46,602 bases of DNA from an uncultured Bdellovibrionales bacterium (GTDB taxonomy: Bacteria; Patescibacteriota; Minisyncoccia; Moranbacterales; UBA9337), in assembly GCA_964603325.1 (NCBI GenBank), contig CAZRUH010000001.1, forward strand, positions 5,452 through 52,053. Direction: 5' to 3'. Shown here piece after piece: positions 7,653-42,132 of the stretch. Both the position numbers and the translations under genes were made by a program. The notes beneath the pieces are model-generated. The model ran no database searches, had not been told where the DNA came from, and worked only from the letters and a program-made list of their open reading frames with translations. Numbering within the stretch: position 1 is the first letter of the stretch; every line of letters begins with the position of its first letter.

Positions 7653-8222
7653 ATGCAATCAATAACCCTTCCCAAAAAAAGTAAATTTATTGAAACCGGA
7701 GAAAATTCCGGAAAGTTTATAATAGAAGAATGTTACCCGGGATATGGAACAACATTGGGAAATTCTTTAAGAAGAGTTTTGTTGTCTTCTTTGGATGGAG
7801 CAGCTGTTACGGCTGTAAAAATTAAGGGTGTTTCTCACGAATTCTCCACCATTGAAGGAGTTTTGGAAGATGTTGTTCAAATAATTTTAAATGTGAAAAA
7901 AATTCGTTTTAAATTTTTCGGAGACAATCCAATTAGAGTGGAGTTGAAGCATAAAGGAAAAGGGGAGATTACCGCTAAAAACATTAAATGTCCTTCTGAC
8001 GCGGAAGTTGTTAATGGTGAGCAAATTATTGCTACAGCCACTTCAAGCAAAGCCAATTTGGAGATGGAATTAGAAATTTCAAAAGGAATCGGGTATGTTC
8101 CCGTTGATCAACAAACAAAGATGGGCGAATTAAATTGGATTGCAGTTGATGCCATTTACACTCCGATTAAGAGGGTGAATTATCAAGTTGAAAATATGCG
8201 TGTTGGAAAGAGAACAGATTAA
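7653..8222 (+). CDS. rpoA: DNA-directed RNA polymerase alpha subunit, N-terminal fragment, ending at an in-frame TAA (8220-8222)
   Basis: Contains GKFIIEECYPGYGTTLGNSLRRVLLSSLDGAAVTAVKI and NYQVENMRVGKRTD. The stop falls inside the conserved NTD segment. See the finding. Confidence 0.9.
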   Translation: MQSITLPKKSKFIETGENSGKFIIEECYPGYGTTLGNSLRRVLLSSLDGAAVTAVKIKGVSHEFSTIEGVLEDVVQIILNVKKIRFKFFGDNPIRVELKHKGKGEITAKNIKCPSDAEVVNGEQIIATATSSKANLEMELEISKGIGYVPVDQQTKMGELNWIAVDAIYTPIKRVNYQVENMRVGKRTD

Positions 8223-8234
8223 GATAAGATAATT

Positions 8235-8654
8235 TTGGAAATTTTTACAGATGGAAGCATTACTCCCGTAGACGCATTTAATAAAGCGGTGGAGATATTG
8301 GTAAAACAGTTTAGCGCTCTATCGGAAGGAGTAAACAAAACTACACAAACTCAAAAAGAAAAGATTGAAGCGGAAGATAAGCCTCAGGAGTATGAAGCTA
8401 TTTTTGACGACAAGAAAGAAGATGTTTCTGAAGAAGTTGGCAATGAGAAAGAGGCCGGCAATATTAAAATTGAAGAATTAAAGGGATTGTCTACCAGAAC
8501 ACTCAATGCTCTTAAGGATAATAAGATAAGCAAAGTGAAAAAAATTATTTCTTTAAGCGCTGATGATTTGTTGCAATTGGAAGGAATGGGAGAAAAAGGC
8601 GTTAAGGAAATTAAAAAAGCAATTGGTAGTTTGGGATTAATATTGAAAAACTAA
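8235..8654 (+). CDS. rpoA: RNA polymerase alpha subunit, remainder (end of NTD, acidic linker, CTD), same frame as 7653..8222
   Basis: The frame is open from 8223 (DKIILEIFTDGSITPVDAFNKAVEILVKQF). The track's M at 8235 is a TTG codon. The CTD helix-hairpin-helix is LSTRTLNALKDNKISKVKKIISLSADDLLQLEGMGEKGVKEIKKAI. Confidence 0.85.
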   Translation: MEIFTDGSITPVDAFNKAVEILVKQFSALSEGVNKTTQTQKEKIEAEDKPQEYEAIFDDKKEDVSEEVGNEKEAGNIKIEELKGLSTRTLNALKDNKISKVKKIISLSADDLLQLEGMGEKGVKEIKKAIGSLGLILKN

Positions 8655-22315: not shown

Positions 22316-24364
22316 ATGGGAACATTGGCGCTGGTCAAAAGTATGGTGAAATTTAGTAAGATATTTTTATTAATGTCGCTTGTCTTGTTGGGCAATGTTT
22401 CTGCGGTCAAGTTTGCAAAAGCGGCTACAACCTACAATTTCAATGAACTATATCTTTGCACAATAAACAAGGATCTTTGTTCTCCGCAAAAAACAAGAAC
22501 CGTAAACGTTTCTCAAGAAGGAGATTATTCTTTGCGTGTAACCGTGGAAAGAGGAAATGATCTTTCAAGGCATGAGTGTCAAGATCAAGAATCGTTTTAT
22601 ATGGTGATTAATGGGCAAAGGACTTCCACCGTTAATGATCCTGATAGGTGTGAATGGCAAGGAACGGTAAAGACGCAATCCGTTTCCGGAAGGTATCATT
22701 TTAACAGAGGGAATAATACAATAGTTTTTCATCATGCTTATAATTTGGCGCAAGCTGAAAGCGTAGAAAGTTTAACGGTGAAAAGTTTGGAAATTACCAG
22801 AATCCCAAATCCAATAGATGGTCAATGCGGAACGGCAAATGGAAAAACTTATAACTCAAGACCAAACGATAATCTTTGTTCGGTTGGAACTCCTTCGGAT
22901 GTTTTTGGTTTTGGTCCGTGGACATGGCAATGTTCCGGGTATGATGGTGGTAGAACTGTTAATTGTTCTGCTGATATAGTGAATCCTTCTTGCGGAACGG
23001 CAAACGGAAGAACATTTTCATCAGCACCAAATAGCAATCTTTGTTCTGTAGGATCACATACCTCAGTAAGAGAAAGTGATGATACATGGGACTGGCAATG
23101 TGTAAAGGGAACAAAAAGAGTTTCTTGTCAGGCAAACAAGTATGTTCCGGTTTGTGGAAATGATATAGTTGATAGTGGTGAACAATGCGATGATGGAAAC
23201 AATCAAGATGGTGATGGTTGCAGTTCTTCTTGCAGAACAGAAGGAACTTCTATAAGGATAGATAAAAATGATAATGACAATGGAGATGATCAACAAAATA
23301 TAGAAAGAAACGGGGTGGCGGAATTTAAAATAGAGATTACCAATGTGGGAGAAAGGTCATTAGAGAATGTTGTTGTTAGAGATGAAAGAACTCCCTCTTG
23401 CAGTAAAACTGCGAATGAAACCAGAGCATTATATAGTGGTGATTATTTATCTCCGGGAGAAAGTTTTTCTTATACTTGCTCCAACAACAATGTTCTTTCC
23501 GGATATACAAATGTGGCAAGAGTTATTGCTGACGGAATAAACGGTGGCAACAGCGTTACTGATAGTGATACAAGCAATGTTTCTGTTTTTATTCCGGAAT
23601 CTTGTGGTGATGGCGCAATAAATCAGCCATCGGAACAGTGTGACAACGGTTCTGATAATGGGAATGTTTGCTTGCCTGAATATGGGGGAAGTTGTCAGTA
23701 TTGTTCTTCAACTTGTGAATTGATTACATTGAATGGAGGAAATTGTGGTAATGGGGAGATTGATGGAAATGAACAATGCGATGATGGAAACAATCAAGAT
23801 GGTGATGGTTGCAGTTCTTCTTGCAGAATAGAAGAAACTCCGGAGCCAACTCCGGAACCAACTCCGGAACCAACCCCGGAGAAAACTAAAAAATGTAAGG
23901 GAACCATCGGAAATTACATTTGGCTAGATATTAATGGTGACGGAAAACAAGATGCCAATGAAAAGGGAATTAAGAATATCAGGTTAAAATTAAAATGGGC
24001 CGGTAAAGATGGAAAATGGGGAAACTCAGATGATAAAACGTGGAAAACTCACACCAATAAAAAGGGTCGTTACGTTTTTGAAAATCTTTGTAAAGGAAAA
24101 TACAAATTATATGTAAATGATTTAGATACCAAAAAATATTCTAAAACCTATGACCCGGATGGAAAGAAGGATAATAAAACCAAGATTAAGCTAAAAACCA
24201 GAAAAGATGAGTATACTAAGGCTGATTTTGGTTATAATAAAAAGAAAACCACTCCGGCTACCGGAGCGGGAGAAATAGCATTATATCTTTCAGGATTGCT
24301 TTCTTTTGTAGGATTTCTTTCTTATAAACAATATCAGAGCAAGGCAATTCAAATTAAAAAATAA
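22316..24364 (+). CDS. Large Cys-rich multidomain cell-surface protein with a C-terminal sortase sorting signal
   Basis: Signal peptide is MVKFSKIFLLMSLVLLGNVSAVKFAKA. Has 2 copies of a ~48-aa repeat: CGTANG[KR]T[YF].S.PN.NLCSVG...W.WQC..V.C.A. Has 2 copies of EQCDDGNNQDGDGCSSSCR, which is Myxococcus-type Cys-rich-repeat-like. A DUF11/CARDB-like segment is ITNVGERSLENVVVRDE. The TPEP linker precedes an SdrD-B-like domain (GNYIWLDINGDGKQDANEKGIKNIRLKL..GRYVFENL). The C-terminus is TPATG, then a hydrophobic helix, then KQYQSKAIQIKK. Confidence 0.8.
   Translation: MGTLALVKSMVKFSKIFLLMSLVLLGNVSAVKFAKAATTYNFNELYLCTINKDLCSPQKTRTVNVSQEGDYSLRVTVERGNDLSRHECQDQESFYMVINGQRTSTVNDPDRCEWQGTVKTQSVSGRYHFNRGNNTIVFHHAYNLAQAESVESLTVKSLEITRIPNPIDGQCGTANGKTYNSRPNDNLCSVGTPSDVFGFGPWTWQCSGYDGGRTVNCSADIVNPSCGTANGRTFSSAPNSNLCSVGSHTSVRESDDTWDWQCVKGTKRVSCQANKYVPVCGNDIVDSGEQCDDGNNQDGDGCSSSCRTEGTSIRIDKNDNDNGDDQQNIERNGVAEFKIEITNVGERSLENVVVRDERTPSCSKTANETRALYSGDYLSPGESFSYTCSNNNVLSGYTNVARVIADGINGGNSVTDSDTSNVSVFIPESCGDGAINQPSEQCDNGSDNGNVCLPEYGGSCQYCSSTCELITLNGGNCGNGEIDGNEQCDDGNNQDGDGCSSSCRIEETPEPTPEPTPEPTPEKTKKCKGTIGNYIWLDINGDGKQDANEKGIKNIRLKLKWAGKDGKWGNSDDKTWKTHTNKKGRYVFENLCKGKYKLYVNDLDTKKYSKTYDPDGKKDNKTKIKLKTRKDEYTKADFGYNKKKTTPATGAGEIALYLSGLLSFVGFLSYKQYQSKAIQIKK
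23179..23237 (+). repeat. Copy 1 of a 59-nt perfect direct repeat inside the surface-protein gene
   Basis: TGAACAATGCGATGATGGAAACAATCAAGATGGTGATGGTTGCAGTTCTTCTTGCAGAA is identical to 23770..23828. Confidence 0.9.
23770..23828 (+). repeat. Copy 2 of the 59-nt perfect direct repeat
   Basis: Base-for-base identical to 23179..23237 by manual comparison. The copies are offset by 591 nt, which keeps them in frame. Confidence 0.9.
23837..23881 (+). repeat. Tandem 12-nt repeat encoding the (TPEP)n linker
   Basis: ACTCCGGAGCCA ACTCCGGAACCA ACTCCGGAACCA ACCCCGGAG encodes TPEPTPEPTPEPTPE. Confidence 0.85.
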
Positions 24365-24422
24365 ATGGTTTTATAAAAAACAATGATCTCGCTTTGGGAC
24401 TGTTGTTTGGAGAGAGAAATAT

Positions 24423-25436
24423 ATGAACACTTTCAGAAAAAAAGTAAAGTGGATGACGCTGTTTGGCATCTTGACATTTATCATTTTTTATTTGATTAAT
24501 TCTGATGTCAACTCACTTAAAAAGACATTTTGCGATTCTTATTGCGATGAATACAATTATGTAAAAAACAAAGAAATTCCTCAGTATTGGTTGGATAAAT
24601 ATGGAATTGAAATTAAAGATGAAAGCGATTTAACGGCGGATATTGATAATGATGGATTAATCTTAAGACAAGAGTATAAATATTTTACCAATCCGCTTAA
24701 TCCGGACACGGACGGCGATGGGTATAAAGACGGGAAAGAGGTTCGTGATGGGTACAATCCTTTGGGGGAGGGTAGATTGGATATTGATGGTGATAGATTG
24801 CCCGATAATTGGGAAGAAAAATATGGCTTGAGTTTAAGTGATAACGATTATAATTTAGATCCGGATAACGATGGCTTGTTGAATTATTTGGAATATAAGT
24901 ACGGGACAAATCCACTGGAGGCGGATACGGACGGAGATGGCTACAATGATTTACATGAGATAAGAAATGGCTATGATCCGGATGCTCCCGGAAGTTTAAG
25001 ACCGGAATATACTTTAATTATCAAAAAAATAAAGGTGTCTGTTCCCATTATTTGGTCAAAGAGTTTTTTGGAGGATGATATGTTGGAAGAATTAAAGAGT
25101 GGTGTTGTTTTGTATCCAAAAACCGGAGTTCCCGGACAAAATGGAAATGCGGTAATTTCCGGACATAGTAGTAATTATATCTGGGTAAAAGGAAAATACA
25201 ATTATGTTTTTCGCAAATTAAATAATTTAAAAATTGGAGATAAGATAAACATTAAGGTCAAACAAAAGAACGGAAAAGAATTTAATTATAATTATATAGT
25301 TTCAATGAAGAAGGTTGTTGTTGCTGATGATGGCAAAATTTTTGCTGAGACTAAAAAGCCGGCAATAACATTGGTTACTTGTTGGCCTCTTGGAACTAAT
25401 TGGAAAAGATTGATGGTTAGAGCATATATTGAATAA
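24423..25436 (+). CDS. Sortase (transpeptidase) with an N-terminal TM anchor and thrombospondin-type-3-like Ca-binding repeats
   Basis: Catalytic Cys motif is PAITLVTCWP. His motif is NAVISGHSS. C-terminal Arg is KRLMVRAY. The N-terminal half carries DIDNDGL..NPLNPDTDGDGYKDGKE and DPDNDGLLNYLEYKYGTNPLEADTDGDGYNDLHE. GGAGAGAG lies upstream of the ATG. Confidence 0.85.
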   Translation: MNTFRKKVKWMTLFGILTFIIFYLINSDVNSLKKTFCDSYCDEYNYVKNKEIPQYWLDKYGIEIKDESDLTADIDNDGLILRQEYKYFTNPLNPDTDGDGYKDGKEVRDGYNPLGEGRLDIDGDRLPDNWEEKYGLSLSDNDYNLDPDNDGLLNYLEYKYGTNPLEADTDGDGYNDLHEIRNGYDPDAPGSLRPEYTLIIKKIKVSVPIIWSKSFLEDDMLEELKSGVVLYPKTGVPGQNGNAVISGHSSNYIWVKGKYNYVFRKLNNLKIGDKINIKVKQKNGKEFNYNYIVSMKKVVVADDGKIFAETKKPAITLVTCWPLGTNWKRLMVRAYIE

Positions 25437-37895: not shown

Positions 37896-37923
37896 TTGAC
37901 ATATTTGTTAAATGTGTGATAAT
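37896..37923 (+). promoter_or_regulatory. Candidate promoter for the HTH/membrane/ATPase gene string
   Basis: TTGACA at 37896-37901, a 16-nt spacer, then GATAAT at 37918-37923 preceded by TGTGT. It overlaps the track's ATG 37912, which argues for the ATG 37960 start. Confidence 0.4.
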
Positions 37924-37959
37924 CTACAAAATTCATTATTGAAATATAAATTGTATACT

Positions 37960-39003
37960 ATGAAAAATAATTATAAAAATAATAATGCGGACACCGATTT
38001 TCTTTTGGAAGTGGTAAATTCTATTACTGAGGGAATAAATAGTAGATCAAAAAAAATGTTAATTGATCGTTTTGGTCTTGGCAAAAAGAGCTCCTTATCA
38101 CTTAATCAAATTGGCGAAAAGCACAATATTACCAGAGAAAGAGTTAGACAGATAATCAATGAGACAATAAACAAAATCAAGCAAAAAATAAAAACGAGCA
38201 ATTCTTTCAAAAAAATGGAAGAAAAAATTGTTTTTGCCGTAAAATCTAAATATGGTATAATTTCAATGGAGGAGTTGTTGGCTATTTTTGCAAGAAACAA
38301 GAATGAATACGGTTATTTTAAATTTATTTTGTTTTGTTCTGAAAAAGTGGAGACAATCAATAGTAATAACTTGGTGGAGTCGGTTTATTTTTCCGATTTT
38401 GATTTTAAAAAATTAAATAAAGTTTATAATATTGTTGAGAATTTGCTTAAAAAAGACGGTAAGGTTGTTAAGCTAAAGGAACTTTTCAATAGATTTACAG
38501 AGTGTAGTCATATAAGCATCAATTATGATAATTTTGTTAATTTTTTAAAAATTTCCAAAACGATAAAGAAAAATGTTTTTGGTGAATGGGGTTTATCCGA
38601 ATGGAAGGAAGTTACTCCCAAAAATATTAGGGATAAGGCATATTTGGTTGCTAAGAAAGAAAATACTCCGCTTCACTTTAGAAAATTGGCTTCTTTAATT
38701 GATGAATATGGATTAAGTAACAGAAAAAGTCATCCACAAACGGTACATAATGAATTGATTAAAGATAAAAAATTTGTTTTAGTTGGTAGAGGAACATATG
38801 CATTGAGTGAGTGGGGTTATAAAAAAGGGACAGTTAAAGATGTGATTGAATATGTTCTAAAAAAAGAAAAAAAATCATTATCCAAAAGAGAAATAATAAA
38901 GAGAGTTTTATCTGTCAGAAATGTTAAAGATACGACAGTGCTGATAAATTTAAATACCTACTTTAAGAAAATAGAGAATGATAGATATTTTTTAAAAAAA
39001 TAA
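37960..39003 (+). CDS. DNA-binding protein with an N-terminal sigma-70 region-4-like HTH and a C-terminal HARE-HTH-like domain
   Basis: Region-4-like sequence is MLIDRFGLGKKSSLSLNQIGEKHNITRERVRQIINETINKIK. C-terminal sequence is PLHFRKLASLIDEYGL..HPQTVHNELIKDKKFVLVGRGTYALSEWGY (RpoE-delta/HARE-HTH pattern). No sigma regions 2 or 3 are recognisable. Confidence 0.6.
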   Translation: MKNNYKNNNADTDFLLEVVNSITEGINSRSKKMLIDRFGLGKKSSLSLNQIGEKHNITRERVRQIINETINKIKQKIKTSNSFKKMEEKIVFAVKSKYGIISMEELLAIFARNKNEYGYFKFILFCSEKVETINSNNLVESVYFSDFDFKKLNKVYNIVENLLKKDGKVVKLKELFNRFTECSHISINYDNFVNFLKISKTIKKNVFGEWGLSEWKEVTPKNIRDKAYLVAKKENTPLHFRKLASLIDEYGLSNRKSHPQTVHNELIKDKKFVLVGRGTYALSEWGYKKGTVKDVIEYVLKKEKKSLSKREIIKRVLSVRNVKDTTVLINLNTYFKKIENDRYFLKK

Positions 39004-39056: not shown

Positions 39057-40352
39057 ATGGATATTTTATCAACAAACACCATAGTGGTATTTTTGGATAT
39101 TATTGGGCAAGCGTTTGCAACAACTTGGTTTATTGTTTTGCCGTTTTTATTTTATTTTATTTTTAAAATAGTTTGGTTGGATTATGTTAAAGATGATTAT
39201 TGGAGTAAAATTGAGTGGGATGTTTTAGAGATAATACCACCGAATGACATAGAAGAAACTCCGCAGGCAATGGAAATGGTTTTTGCTGGACTGCTTGGTT
39301 CAATGAAAGGAATTAATGTCATTGAAGAAAATGTTAAAGGAGAAACTCCCATGTATTTCAGTCTTGAACTTGTAAGTATAGAGGGTGTGGTTCATTTTTA
39401 TATAAGAACACCAAAGTCTTTTAAAGCGTTAATAGAATCGCATATTCATTCTCAATATCCCACCGCTATCGTTGAGACTGTTTCTGATTATGTTGATGAT
39501 ATTCCGAAAATTATTCCCAATAAAAACTGGGATTTGTGGGGGACAGATTTCAGACTGGATAAGCCGGATCCTTACCCAATTAAAACATATCGTTGGTTTG
39601 AAGAAGATGTAACCGGAAAAGTATTAGATCCACTGGCTTCGTTAATTGAAAGTATCGGAAAAATAGGTCCGCAACAATATTTTTGGTTGCAACTGGTTAT
39701 TACGCCAAAAGATGCCAAAGAGTATGATACCGGAAAAAAATTGGCGGAAGAACTTGCCGGACGAGAAGTAAAAAAAACACAGAATTTTATAGAAAAATAT
39801 TTATTTGGATGGTTAACTGTCATAAATGATTTTATTGCCAATTTAATAGGAATGCCGGTAGAAAGTGGAAACGGTGACGATGGGGGTGTAGATGTCCCCT
39901 TGGAATTTAAGATGACTCCGGGAGAAAAAGAGGTCTTGAAGCAAATAGAAGAAGGGATTGGAAAAAGCGCTTTTAATGTTAAAATGAGAATAATATATAC
40001 CGGAAGAAGAGAGAATTTTAATAAGGTTGTTGTCGGTTCGTTTATGGGGGGGATTAAGCAATTTTCAGATGCCAATTTAAATGGCTTTGCTCCGGACAAT
40101 AACAGTAAAACATATGCTTTGCATCTTTTTACGGAAACAAGAATGAAATATCGGCAAAGAAAAATTTTACGAAGATATAGAGATAGAGATAGAGATGGCG
40201 TAACATTTCATTTGAATACGGAAGAATTGGCGACGGTTTTTCATTTACCAACTATAAATGTTGCTACGCCGGTGTTGCAGAAAGTTAATGTTAAAACCGG
40301 TAGTGCTCCTGCAAATTTACCGATAGAGCCAATAGAGGAATCAAATAAATAA
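39057..40352 (+). CDS. Membrane-anchored protein of unknown function, partner of the downstream ATPase
   Basis: 431 aa. N-terminal hydrophobic region is TIVVFLDIIGQAFATTWFIVLPFLFYFIFKIVWL, followed by a large soluble domain. The C-terminal segment is HLNTEELATVFHLPT. Its stop lies 13 nt before the ATPase start. I recognise no catalytic motif. Confidence 0.6.
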   Translation: MDILSTNTIVVFLDIIGQAFATTWFIVLPFLFYFIFKIVWLDYVKDDYWSKIEWDVLEIIPPNDIEETPQAMEMVFAGLLGSMKGINVIEENVKGETPMYFSLELVSIEGVVHFYIRTPKSFKALIESHIHSQYPTAIVETVSDYVDDIPKIIPNKNWDLWGTDFRLDKPDPYPIKTYRWFEEDVTGKVLDPLASLIESIGKIGPQQYFWLQLVITPKDAKEYDTGKKLAEELAGREVKKTQNFIEKYLFGWLTVINDFIANLIGMPVESGNGDDGGVDVPLEFKMTPGEKEVLKQIEEGIGKSAFNVKMRIIYTGRRENFNKVVVGSFMGGIKQFSDANLNGFAPDNNSKTYALHLFTETRMKYRQRKILRRYRDRDRDGVTFHLNTEELATVFHLPTINVATPVLQKVNVKTGSAPANLPIEPIEESNK

Positions 40353-40365
40353 TTATTTTTATATT

Positions 40366-42132
40366 ATGCAACAAGAAATAACTTTTTTTGCAAAAACAAA
40401 TTTTAGAAATCAAAATGTCAAATTTGGAATAAAAGAAAACGATCGTCAAAGACATATGTATGTTATTGGTAAGACGGGAATGGGAAAAACAACATTGCTT
40501 GAAAATATTGTTATGCAGGATATTTCCAACGGACATGCTGTTGCCTACATTGATCCTCATGGAGATACTGCTGAAAAACTTATCCAAGCCATTCCGTCAA
40601 ACAGAATAAATGATGTTGTTTATTTTAATCCCGCCGATACGGAAAATCCAATCGCTTTTAATATTTTGGAAGCGGTAGATGAGGACAAGAAACATCTTGT
40701 CGCTTCCGGAATGATGGGTGTTTTTAAAAAGATTTGGCCTGATGTTTGGAGCGCTAGGATGGAGTATATTTTAAACAATACAATTTTGGCATTATTGGAT
40801 TATCCCGGTTCAACCATGATGGGTATCAATCGTATGATGTCTGACAAAGTATATAGAAAGAGAGTTTATAAAAAAATAAAAGATCCGATAGTTAAGGGAT
40901 TTTGGTTGGATGAATTTGAGTCTTGGGATGATAGATTTAGAAAAGAAGCGGTGGCGGCTATTCAAAACAAAGTTGGTCAGTTTCTTTCTTCTTCCTTAAT
41001 CAGAAATATTGTCGGACAGACAAAATCAACTATCAATATGAGAGATATTATGGATAATAACAAGATATTGATAGTCAATTTATCCAAGGGAAAGATAGGT
41101 GAGGATGCCATGAGACTTTTGGGAGGTATGATTGTGACAAAAATACAGTTGGCATCAATGGAGCGTGTTGATATTCCGGAGGAAGATAGAAAAAATTTTT
41201 ATTTAACTGTAGATGAATTTCAAAACTTTGTGACAGAATCTTTCGCAAATATTTTATCGGAAGCAAGAAAGTATAAATTGAATTTGTTGGTAGCGCATCA
41301 ATACATTAGCCAACTTGTTTTTGACGGCAATACTACGGTAAGAGATGCTATTTTTGGTAATGTTGGAACGATAATATCTTTCAGGGTTGGCGCAGATGAT
41401 GCGGAATTTTTGGAAAAAGAATTTGAGCCGGTCTTTACTATGAATGATATTATAAATTTGCCGAAATATAATATTTATTTAAAACTGATGATAGATGGTA
41501 TTGCCGGAGATGCGTTTTCCGCAACAGCTCTTCCTCCAATAGATTTGCAGAATACATACGAAAATGCTGAAAAAGTTATTAGAGTGTCTAGAGAAAGATA
41601 TTCCAACAAAAGGGGAGATATTGAAGATAAAATTGCAAGATGGACGGGAATGATTGACGAAACAAAAATCAAGAAAGAGAGCAATCAGAAACCAAAAGAA
41701 ACAATCCCTAATCCATTAAAAGAAAAACAATCGGATAATTTTAAAAAATCGGCAAAAAATAATAAGCAAAGCAATAAAAAAGATAATAAGAAAAAAATGC
41801 ATAAATCGGTTTGTGATACTTGTGGCATTGAGATAGAAATTCCTTTTAAGCCCGATGGAGAAAGACCGACTTTTTGTATTGAATGCTTAAAAGATTATCA
41901 ACGTGCTTTAGCTCGCTTAAAAAACAGAGAAAAGCAATTGAACGATAATAAAGAGAGTGGAAATCGGAGTTTAAACGAGAAAGAAGAAGTTTATGTTTCA
42001 AGAGAAAAACCGCTAAGTTTAAATCAACTTCAATACATTTCTCCTAAAAAAATTAAAAATTTGGATAATCTTAAAAAAGGCGTGAAAATAAAAGAGCTTA
42101 TAAAAAAAATAAAGAAAAACAAACAAGAGTAA
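40366..42132 (+). CDS. VirD4/TraD-like (type IV coupling protein / HerA-FtsK clade) P-loop ATPase with a Lys-rich tail and a C-terminal CxxC..CxxC zinc ribbon
   Basis: Walker A is VIGKTGMGKTTL. Walker B is FYLTVDEFQNF. The coupling-protein-type motif is SEARKYKLNLLVAHQYISQL. The tail is KKSAKNNKQSNKKDNKKK, followed by CDTCGIEIEIPFKPDGERPTFCIEC at 41812..41886. Confidence 0.75.
   Translation: MQQEITFFAKTNFRNQNVKFGIKENDRQRHMYVIGKTGMGKTTLLENIVMQDISNGHAVAYIDPHGDTAEKLIQAIPSNRINDVVYFNPADTENPIAFNILEAVDEDKKHLVASGMMGVFKKIWPDVWSARMEYILNNTILALLDYPGSTMMGINRMMSDKVYRKRVYKKIKDPIVKGFWLDEFESWDDRFRKEAVAAIQNKVGQFLSSSLIRNIVGQTKSTINMRDIMDNNKILIVNLSKGKIGEDAMRLLGGMIVTKIQLASMERVDIPEEDRKNFYLTVDEFQNFVTESFANILSEARKYKLNLLVAHQYISQLVFDGNTTVRDAIFGNVGTIISFRVGADDAEFLEKEFEPVFTMNDIINLPKYNIYLKLMIDGIAGDAFSATALPPIDLQNTYENAEKVIRVSRERYSNKRGDIEDKIARWTGMIDETKIKKESNQKPKETIPNPLKEKQSDNFKKSAKNNKQSNKKDNKKKMHKSVCDTCGIEIEIPFKPDGERPTFCIECLKDYQRALARLKNREKQLNDNKESGNRSLNEKEEVYVSREKPLSLNQLQYISPKKIKNLDNLKKGVKIKELIKKIKKNKQE

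Follow-up and report, generated by a model that had tools for sequence, protein, structure and literature searches.

Type IV secretion system (T4SS) coupling proteins (T4CPs) are known in a long form of ~800 amino acids from actinobacteria (Embleya NZ_CP108778, WP_331738717.1; Streptomyces), in which PF26449 (DUF8128), PF10412 (TrwB_AAD_bind) and PF12696 (TraG-D_C) are joined in a single polypeptide, encoded on plasmids or in integrative and conjugative element (ICE)-like regions in clusters with PrgI, a VirB4-like ATPase, a relaxase and an NlpC/P60 protein. DUF8128 is fused with a T4CP-like ATPase in phage-encoded proteins as well, namely phage G gp156 and gp27.4 of the SPO1/CP-51/JL type (phrog_5156). 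Here we analysed a stretch of 46,602 nucleotides (hereafter the window; contig CAZRUH010000001.1, positions 5,452 to 52,053) from an uncultured member of the Patescibacteria, in which the modules of the actinobacterial proteins occur in the same order as two genes, a DUF8128 gene and a TrwB/VirD4-type nucleoside triphosphatase (NTPase) gene. The two are very probably one long-form T4CP split at the linker between its domains; and our overall reading, that this split T4CP acts as the receptor and motor of a distant T4SS, we consider reasonably probable.

The Patescibacteria, or candidate phyla radiation (CPR), account for much of bacterial diversity and are epibionts that need nucleotides and building blocks from their hosts. 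In a recent survey (Quinonero-Coronel et al., 2025, PMC12102498), VirB4 is reported from 2,417 of 3,035 Patescibacteria genomes (80%) and VirD4-like T4CP homologs, 5,713 in all, from 2,918 of 3,035 (96%); only 148 of the 5,713 lie near virB4, and relaxases are almost absent. The chromosomal T4SS was essential in the one species tested, yet is described as having no recognizable coupling protein or relaxase, and the thousands of orphan T4CP homologs stand unexplained in published work (PMC10633639; PMC12102498). Evidently the window ATPase belongs to the VirD4-like homologs counted in that survey. Its accessible parts contain nothing on a DUF8128 partner, on a split architecture, on the gene for a sigma region 4 (sigma4)/HARE-HTH protein upstream of the pair or on the secD–secF synteny reported below. 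A search of the accessible literature for DUF8128 found no mention of it; and we found no earlier account of the split architecture, of the partnership with DUF8128, of its VirB4-like fold or of the sigma4/HARE-HTH linkage.

Checking of open reading frames (ORFs) confirmed the coordinates and lengths given in a first-pass annotation of the window, which had read a 431-residue protein and, after a gap of 13 nt, a 588-residue P-loop ATPase as a candidate minimal DNA-translocation module. A third conserved gene (sigma region 4 and HARE-HTH) and a zinc-ribbon tail on the ATPase were absent from that annotation. The features of the locus are as follows.

37896–37923, + strand: promoter-like site, TTGACA-16 nt-(TG)GATAAT (11/12 match, extended -10)
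37912–39003, + strand: gene 1, sigma-70 region 4 and HARE-HTH (Pfam domains)
39057–40352, + strand: gene 2, DUF8128 gene, 431 amino acids (ORF check)
39078–39188, + strand: single transmembrane (TM)/hydrophobic helix of the DUF8128 protein, residues ~8–44 (Kyte–Doolittle scan)
40218–40250, + strand: C-terminal DUF8128 motif T-E-E-L-A-T-x-F-H-x-P; A392, H396 and P398 invariant in the homolog alignment
40353–40365, + strand: intergenic spacer between genes 2 and 3, 13 nt; the split point corresponds to the linker of the fused homologs
40366–42132, + strand: gene 3, TrwB/VirD4-type NTPase gene, 588 amino acids (ORF check)
40468–40491, + strand: Walker A, GKTGMGKT, residues 35–42; invariant across 60 homologs
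40681–41055, + strand: all-helical insertion between Walker A and B, residues ~106–230 (secondary structure of the AlphaFold2 (AF2) model)
41209–41229, + strand: Walker B, VDEFQNF, residues 282–288; invariant across 60 homologs
41257–41316, + strand: T4CP signature SEARKYKLNLLVAHQYISQL, residues 298–317; columns invariant across 60 homologs
41674–41790, + strand: lysine-rich linker, predicted disordered, residues ~437–475; predicted local distance difference test (pLDDT) <50 at 440–473
41791–41895, + strand: CxxC-x17-CxxC treble-clef zinc ribbon, residues 476–510; C483, C486, C504 and C507
41896–42132, + strand: basic, partly helical C-terminal tail (AF2 model and composition)

That the two genes encode one protein is supported by natural fusions. 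Within the phage family profile phrog_5156 (824 positions) the partner is matched at 30–369 and the ATPase at 395–823. On a viral contig (L004) an in-frame DUF8128–ATPase fusion, 'EELATIYHFP...PAQIPTEGLYLGMSTYRG...MYIIGKTGTGKS', is collinear with the window sequence, in which 'EELATVFHLP...PANLPIE' is followed across the gap by 'ITFFAKTNFRN...MYVIGKTGMGKT'. The C-terminal DUF8128 motif is also recognisable by alignment in the fusions of Embleya and phage G, and lies ~45 amino acids ahead of Walker A in the fused proteins; the actinobacterial T4CPs and the window pair thus have in common an 'ELA..H.P' motif before the ATPase, as well as Walker A and B and the T4CP signature. By profile comparison (hhalign), the N-terminus of phage G gp156 is DUF8128 at 98.3% probability, with a weaker match for SPO1 gp27.4 (64%), and the N-terminal half of the actinobacterial protein gives a weak sequence match to DUF8128 (E 4e-4). 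The Embleya plasmid protein (812 amino acids), annotated as a 'type IV secretory system conjugative DNA transfer family protein', has >1,600 relatives, and among its 120 best relatives 118 carry PF26449 and PF10412 together.

The fused form is found in T4SS-type gene clusters. In Embleya it is encoded with PrgI (VirB3-like), a VirB4-like ATPase (P-loop_TraG/AAA_10/TraC_F_IV), a Replic_Relax relaxase and an NlpC/P60 protein; and in Bacillus phage G (86999–98114) the order is TrbL_4-like gp153, VirB4-like gp155 and then the fusion, gp156. Both clusters point to the fused form being the second ATPase, that is the coupling protein, of monoderm T4SSs, and because these ~800-residue fusions sit in T4SS clusters the window pair is best read as a long-form T4CP split at its linker. 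The first-pass annotation had proposed conserved adjacency of the two genes as a test; besides the fusions, adjacency is kept in 78 of 80 species loci, as detailed below, and the pair is thereby upheld as a genuine functional unit. The fused relatives were located solely via ATPase searches and PHROGs; when phage and plasmid collections were searched with the partner by tblastn, nothing matched. Two hits were set aside: the best plasmid hit, from Sulfitobacter (38% identity), is a lone 395-residue ATPase beside transposases, lacks DUF8128 and was uninformative, and a Microcystis 'phage' protein also lacks DUF8128. In the jumbo phage G the genes for the TrbL/VirB6-like gp153, gp155 and the DUF8128–T4CP fusion adjoin one another, and Bacillus myophages of the SPO1, CP-51 and JL types carry the fusion too; lytic phages thus encode an ATPase module of T4SS type.

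The first-pass assignment of the 588-residue protein as coupling-protein-like is upheld by three Pfam gathering thresholds, passed by TrwB_AAD_bind (42.0 bits, cut-off 20.5; profile match across residues 22–342), T4SS-DNA_transf (37.7 bits, cut-off 20.1) and TraG-D_C (25.9, cut-off 22). The Walker A, Walker B and coupling-protein signature that it had picked out are all present in invariant columns: S298-EARKYKLNLLVAHQYISQL-317 ('SEARKY...HQYISQL') aligns with TrwB '...KGRKAGLRVVAGLQSTSQL', and all 69 of the complete ORFs from other species (69/69) retain Walker A, Walker B and EARK[FY]. When the ATPase family profile was compared with PDB sequences, DotL and TrwB alone were matched; and the AF2 model of the ATPase, which was built separately from that of the partner, matched TrwB (1.8e-10), DotL (2.4e-10) and Cagbeta (7.5e-10) in the PDB ahead of HerA and VirB4 C-terminal domain (CTD) structures. 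In this model (pLDDT 74) the helical insertion coincides in position with the all-alpha domain of T4CPs. AAA_10 scored 19.8 bits, under its cut-off of 27.5; there was no Pfam match to CagE_TrbE_VirB, and none to FtsK_SpoIIIE at E<=0.01.

The ATPase thus shares the NTPase fold, the all-alpha insertion and the TraG-D_C region with canonical T4CPs (TrwB of R388, VirD4, TraD, DotL, Cagbeta), to which it is ~16% identical, with NCBIfam equivalog scores far under cut-offs. Canonical T4CPs have their own short N-terminal TM domain, lack a VirB4-like N-terminal domain (NTD) and are linked to relaxases or effectors, and in these respects the window ATPase differs: it has no hydrophobic window anywhere in its 588 residues and its Walker A begins at residue 35, and therefore it does without the canonical N-terminal membrane domain. 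By comparison with VirB4 (TrwK and the monoderm VirB4-like proteins), the pair appears to have the same overall layout, an N-terminal membrane-associated domain followed by an FtsK/HerA-clade ATPase, but the ATPase half is T4CP-like and not VirB4-like (AAA_10 below cut-off; VirB4 CTD ranked lower). Its zinc ribbon matches Pfam zf_Tbcl_2 (4.7e-11) and TIGR04272 (45.6 bits, cut-off 36), the four cysteines being invariant in the 60-homolog alignment, and the C-terminal region of 152 amino acids is basic (K+R = 40, D+E = 22).

The 431-residue partner had been described as an N-terminal membrane anchor with a large domain of no recognised motif. The anchor stands; the description of the protein as unknown does not, since it belongs to PF26449 (DUF8128) according to precomputed annotation, a tag shared by all 120 homologs listed. 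PF26449 is newer than the Pfam release used for our local scans, and the assignment is given with no recomputed score; the partner had no match in local copies of Pfam, NCBIfam or PADLOC. The hydropathy scan found no second hydrophobic segment above threshold. The AF2 model places a helix at residues 8–51, and the N-terminal single-helix pattern was seen in 56 of 80 homologs under a strict criterion.

The AF2 model of the partner (74 diverse homologs; pLDDT 90.4, predicted template modelling score 0.84) was compared with the PDB using Foldseek, and the only significant matches, the top 14 chains, were all R388 TrwK/VirB4 (E 8e-6 to 3e-3); the fold matches beyond these were unrelated flavin adenine dinucleotide (FAD) oxidases. 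In BFVD the model matched Bacillus phage G gp156 (825 amino acids, 1e-17), a phage JL protein (913 amino acids, 1.5e-15) and a phage Slash protein (551 amino acids, 5e-14), as well as phage G gp155 (3e-8) across 392 columns, the P-loop domain of gp155 starting at about residue 330. As TrwK and gp155 both match the partner, the fold appears common to two unrelated VirB4-type proteins; and on the strength of the model we assign the DUF8128 globular domain, with moderate confidence, to a VirB4-NTD-like class. The structural matches, which the first-pass annotation had set as a further test, thus fall within a DNA/protein translocation pathway. Its suggestion of a novel membrane channel partner is not supported: the single-TM protein corresponds to the VirB4-NTD-like N-terminal half of long T4CPs, and therefore the pair is better taken as one protein in two pieces than as an ATPase with a pore.

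The family is widespread in the Patescibacteria. DUF8128 forms 1806 clusters at 50% identity in a large sequence library, relatives occur in at least 592 GTDB species genomes, and the named sources are all Patescibacteria (Moraniibacteriota, Paceibacterota/Parcubacteria, and the Portnoy-, Terry-, Nealson-, Lipton-, Buchanan-, Niyogi- and Yanofskybacteria groups). We surveyed gene neighbourhoods at 80 Patescibacteria species loci, of which 75 were assessable upstream. The ATPase gene follows the DUF8128 gene on the same strand in 78/80 (median gap 28 nt), and a gene for a sigma4/HARE-HTH protein of ~350 amino acids lies directly upstream of DUF8128 in 72/75. The ATPase was not found downstream of DUF8128 in loci L044 and L071, nor the sigma4/HARE-HTH gene upstream in L044, L072 and L083; these exceptions may reflect genuine loss or rearrangement, or else chimeric assembly. 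Identity is 55–70% in the ATPase core, against 32–38% in DUF8128 and the sigma4/HARE-HTH protein.

Beyond the triad the flanks vary, with genes for elongation factor P, MnmA, phosphoglycerate kinase, DivIC and aminoacyl-tRNA synthetases among those downstream. In about half of the 80 loci the triad is immediately preceded, on its own strand, by secD–secF (e.g. L027:4477–6823 and L038:4478–6780), with SecD_SecF_C in 73 of 122 upstream ORFs; they are not upstream in the window or in Moraniibacteriota. This adjacency may reflect functional coupling or no more than conserved synteny. DnaB and RecR genes precede the triad in the closest relatives of the window only.

Compared with the actinobacterial proteins, then, the window pair consists of two genes where theirs is a single polypeptide, is core-chromosomal with no T4SS or relaxase neighbours where theirs is in a cluster on a plasmid or in an ICE-like region, and has a zinc-ribbon tail, of which none is annotated in theirs, and a sigma4/HARE-HTH partner, which theirs lack. 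It is a split, chromosomally fixed form of a known class, the long-form monoderm T4CP, with lineage-specific additions.

The protein encoded by gene 1 has Pfam matches to Sigma70_r4 (3e-8, residues ~43–90) and HARE-HTH (9e-11, residues ~241–301), and its family profile matches sigma4 of RpoD/SigA (primary sigma) chains in the PDB at 1e-19; sigma regions 2 and 3 are absent. The HARE-HTH domain is also found in the delta subunit of RNA polymerase (RNAP). Sigma region 4 and HARE-HTH alone make an unusual architecture, and a binder of the RNAP flap or -35 element, or a sigma4 mimic, is possible; we infer that the protein is either a DNA/RNAP-binding adaptor or a regulator of the operon. The promoter-like site at 37896–37923 overlaps the first ATG (37912) of the gene 1 ORF, and homolog alignments start where Met17 lies; the true start is probably Met17 (nt 37960). 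This site is the sole near-consensus one upstream of the three-gene unit. Promoter-like sites across the region were no more numerous than the shuffle background, so that only the 11/12 site is noteworthy; and a window scan found no terminator on the + strand within the unit up to the end of the ATPase gene.

We propose that gene 1, the DUF8128 gene and the ATPase gene would be co-transcribed as a core chromosomal operon conserved across Patescibacteria. The TM helix and VirB4-NTD-like domain of the DUF8128 protein would tether the ATPase ring to the membrane on its cytoplasmic side, in the manner of the VirB4 NTD, and the TrwB/VirD4-type NTPase with its all-alpha domain would act as a hexamer. 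The assembly may then serve as the substrate receptor and motor for a T4SS resembling the mating-pair formation (MPF)-FATA type, which most Patescibacteria have at a separate locus near the origin. Where present, the basic zinc-ribbon tail might make direct contact with a substrate, nucleic acid or nucleoprotein, in place of the relaxase/adaptor recognition of conjugation, and the sigma4/HARE-HTH protein may assist in substrate engagement. The proposal does not specify the direction of transport (import or export) or the cargo, which could be DNA, RNA or protein.

Several observations weigh against this reading. Integrase, relaxase and T4SS genes were not found among the flanking genes within +/-8 kb at the 80 loci, and none lies near the triad in the window, so that the link to a distant T4SS is only inferred. 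Queries with monoderm VirB4-like, PrgI, TrbL, relaxase and NlpC proteins found nothing beyond the T4CP gene in 1.1 Mb, in searches of BLAST-level, low sensitivity. The TM-scores of the partner against TrwK are modest (0.30–0.37), the match being known per chain and not per TrwK residue. The partner had no match among PDB sequences even at E<=10, either as a single sequence or as a profile, and hhalign gave no signal between DUF8128 and the Embleya VirB4-like protein or phage G gp155; the link between DUF8128 and VirB4 is therefore one of fold only. Of 69 homologs 47 have the zinc ribbon and 22 lack it, and thus it cannot be essential to the core mechanism. T4CP homologs occur in more Patescibacteria genomes than VirB4 does (PMC12102498), and a role independent of T4SSs would fit this distribution. 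In S. epibionticum the t4cp homolog is reported to be non-essential for epibiotic growth whereas the T4SS genes are essential, which is why exaptation of t4cp is kept possible in that study (PMC12102498); membership of this homolog in the DUF8128-linked family could not be established. Also, the S. epibionticum T4SS was described as having no recognizable coupling or relaxase proteins (Wang et al., 2023, PMC10633639).

One alternative is an exapted housekeeping motor: a membrane-tethered, T4CP-like ring that would work on the chromosome or the transcription machinery of its own cell (in segregation, clearing of the division site or processes tied to RNAP) with no role in secretion, the sigma4/HARE-HTH protein being its DNA/RNAP-targeting subunit. 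We regard this as unlikely, if the most serious competitor to a split T4CP serving a distant T4SS. The high conservation and near-universal, core-genome distribution of the ATPase would fit such a motor, as would its tight and wide linkage to a protein with two RNAP/DNA-binding modules, and exaptation has been raised previously (PMC12102498). A C-terminal domain of DNA-binding type on a flexible linker might, by analogy, recall FtsK gamma. However, FtsK/SpoIIIE proteins have a polytopic N-terminal domain and a gamma winged helix where the window has a single-pass anchor and a C-terminal zinc ribbon, and Pfam FtsK_SpoIIIE has no match to the ATPase; ftsK is annotated in TM7x (PMC10768705), and so replacement of FtsK is not required. 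The sigma4/HARE-HTH gene could be a mere operon regulator, and the characterised contexts of the fused form are all T4SS-like. A related possibility, to which we give a similarly low probability, is that the triad is a near-universal machine ancestral to Patescibacteria and independent of conjugation and possibly of T4SSs; it may, for example, drive the uptake or processing of DNA or RNA from the host at the membrane, or be a membrane-tethered nucleoprotein translocase targeted by an RNAP/DNA-binding adaptor.

In the archaeal Ced system (CedA/A1/A2 with CedB) a membrane component operates with an ATPase of the HerA/VirB4 clade, and on this model the first-pass annotation had envisaged a stand-alone translocator, in which DUF8128 and the ATPase move DNA or nucleoprotein with no T4SS channel. 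The absence of T4SS genes beside the triad at all 80 loci (0/80) is in keeping with this, as are the presence of T4CP homologs in 2,918 Patescibacteria genomes by comparison with VirB4 in 2,417 (PMC12102498), the proximity of DprA, RecR and TopA in the window and the basic zinc-ribbon tail. The analogy itself did not hold, however: CedA is a polytopic membrane conduit, whereas DUF8128 is single-pass with its bulk cytoplasmic and VirB4-NTD-like, and there is no polytopic, CedA-like pore-former in the operon; and the ATPase scored 35.3 bits against NF053655 (CedD), in the P-loop region only, where the cut-off is 600. A stand-alone transporter is disfavoured because it would have no channel component. 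Further, the fused homologs examined in defined systems all adjoin a VirB4-type ATPase, 80% of Patescibacteria genomes encode a chromosomal T4SS elsewhere (PMC12102498), the DprA/RecR/DnaB neighbourhood is confined to the closest relatives, and Patescibacteria already have ComEC-type competence (PMC12857230). Taken together these leave a stand-alone device improbable, more so than an exapted motor.

An ICE remnant or defence ATPase amid housekeeping genes is very improbable: homologs do occur on plasmids and in phages, PADLOC mad8 is the strongest single-profile match of the ATPase in any library (9e-19, profile positions 18–284/314), which suggests that a short T4CP-like ATPase related to it functions in MADS defence, and there is a match of the sigma4 domain to the MzaA model; but the MzaA match is limited to generic sigma region 4, the partner and gene 1 have no mad matches, no integrase, relaxase, other mad or mza gene or repeat context was found in the window or at the 80 loci, GC content is uniform, and the spread of the family over at least 592 species, its catalytic motifs intact, is the opposite of what a decaying or patchy element would show. 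The first-pass view that the locus is not an ICE, drawn from its flanks, is thus sustained by the lack of mobile-element and T4SS genes around the loci of 80 relatives.

If a split T4CP is the right identification, the orphan T4CPs of Patescibacteria gain an anatomy, namely an adjacent DUF8128 half, a sigma4/HARE-HTH partner and often a zinc-ribbon tail, which together make a testable three-protein module. DUF8128, which occurs in conjugation-type clusters of Streptomyces and in large Bacillus phages too, would gain a structural identity, and its VirB4-like fold bears on the evolution of the two T4SS ATPase lineages: were the VirB4-NTD-like assignment true, coupling proteins might originally have had the full VirB4 architecture, from which canonical T4CPs later lost the N-terminal domain. 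A 2026 preprint argues that Patescibacteria feed on host RNA, by a route left unresolved there and possibly through T4SS-like tubes.

The window is a low-GC (~32%) chromosome segment, uniform in GC throughout, that encodes ribosomal proteins, RpoA, two class II aminoacyl-tRNA synthetases, PriA, RtcB, ScpA/B, MurG, MurC and RelA/SpoT. As the first-pass annotation had noted, the flanks of the locus are housekeeping genes: TopA, DprA, RNase H, RecR and DnaB lie upstream of the three-gene unit, and EamA, a glycoside hydrolase family 5 (GH5)-like gene and a class II aminoacyl-tRNA synthetase downstream of the ATPase gene. It had also reported no conjugation genes, and a Pfam scan of the 35 window ORFs found none (relaxase, VirB4, VirB6/8/10, pilin or integrase, 0/35); Rfam and tRNA scans gave no matches in or near the locus. 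A near-identical contig reaches ~5.9 kb past the left end of the window, and the genes there are all without a recorded Pfam match.

Elsewhere in the window, rpoA (7653–8654) is interrupted by one in-frame TAA (8220–8222) at the conserved Tyr of 'RVGKRTD-Y-DKIILE', giving two ORFs in the same frame (7653–8222 and 8235–8654). Since a near-identical contig (L091) has Tyr at the corresponding codon, the TAA is probably an assembly or sequencing error, or else a nonsense mutation or readthrough site particular to this strain. The stretch 22316–25436 encodes a large surface protein (SdrD_B and DUF4215) and, after it, a sortase with TSP3 and PA14-like Ca-binding repeats, and a further Big_13/TSP3 protein is encoded at 274–1716; these are candidates for cell-surface adhesion, of a kind typical of epibionts.

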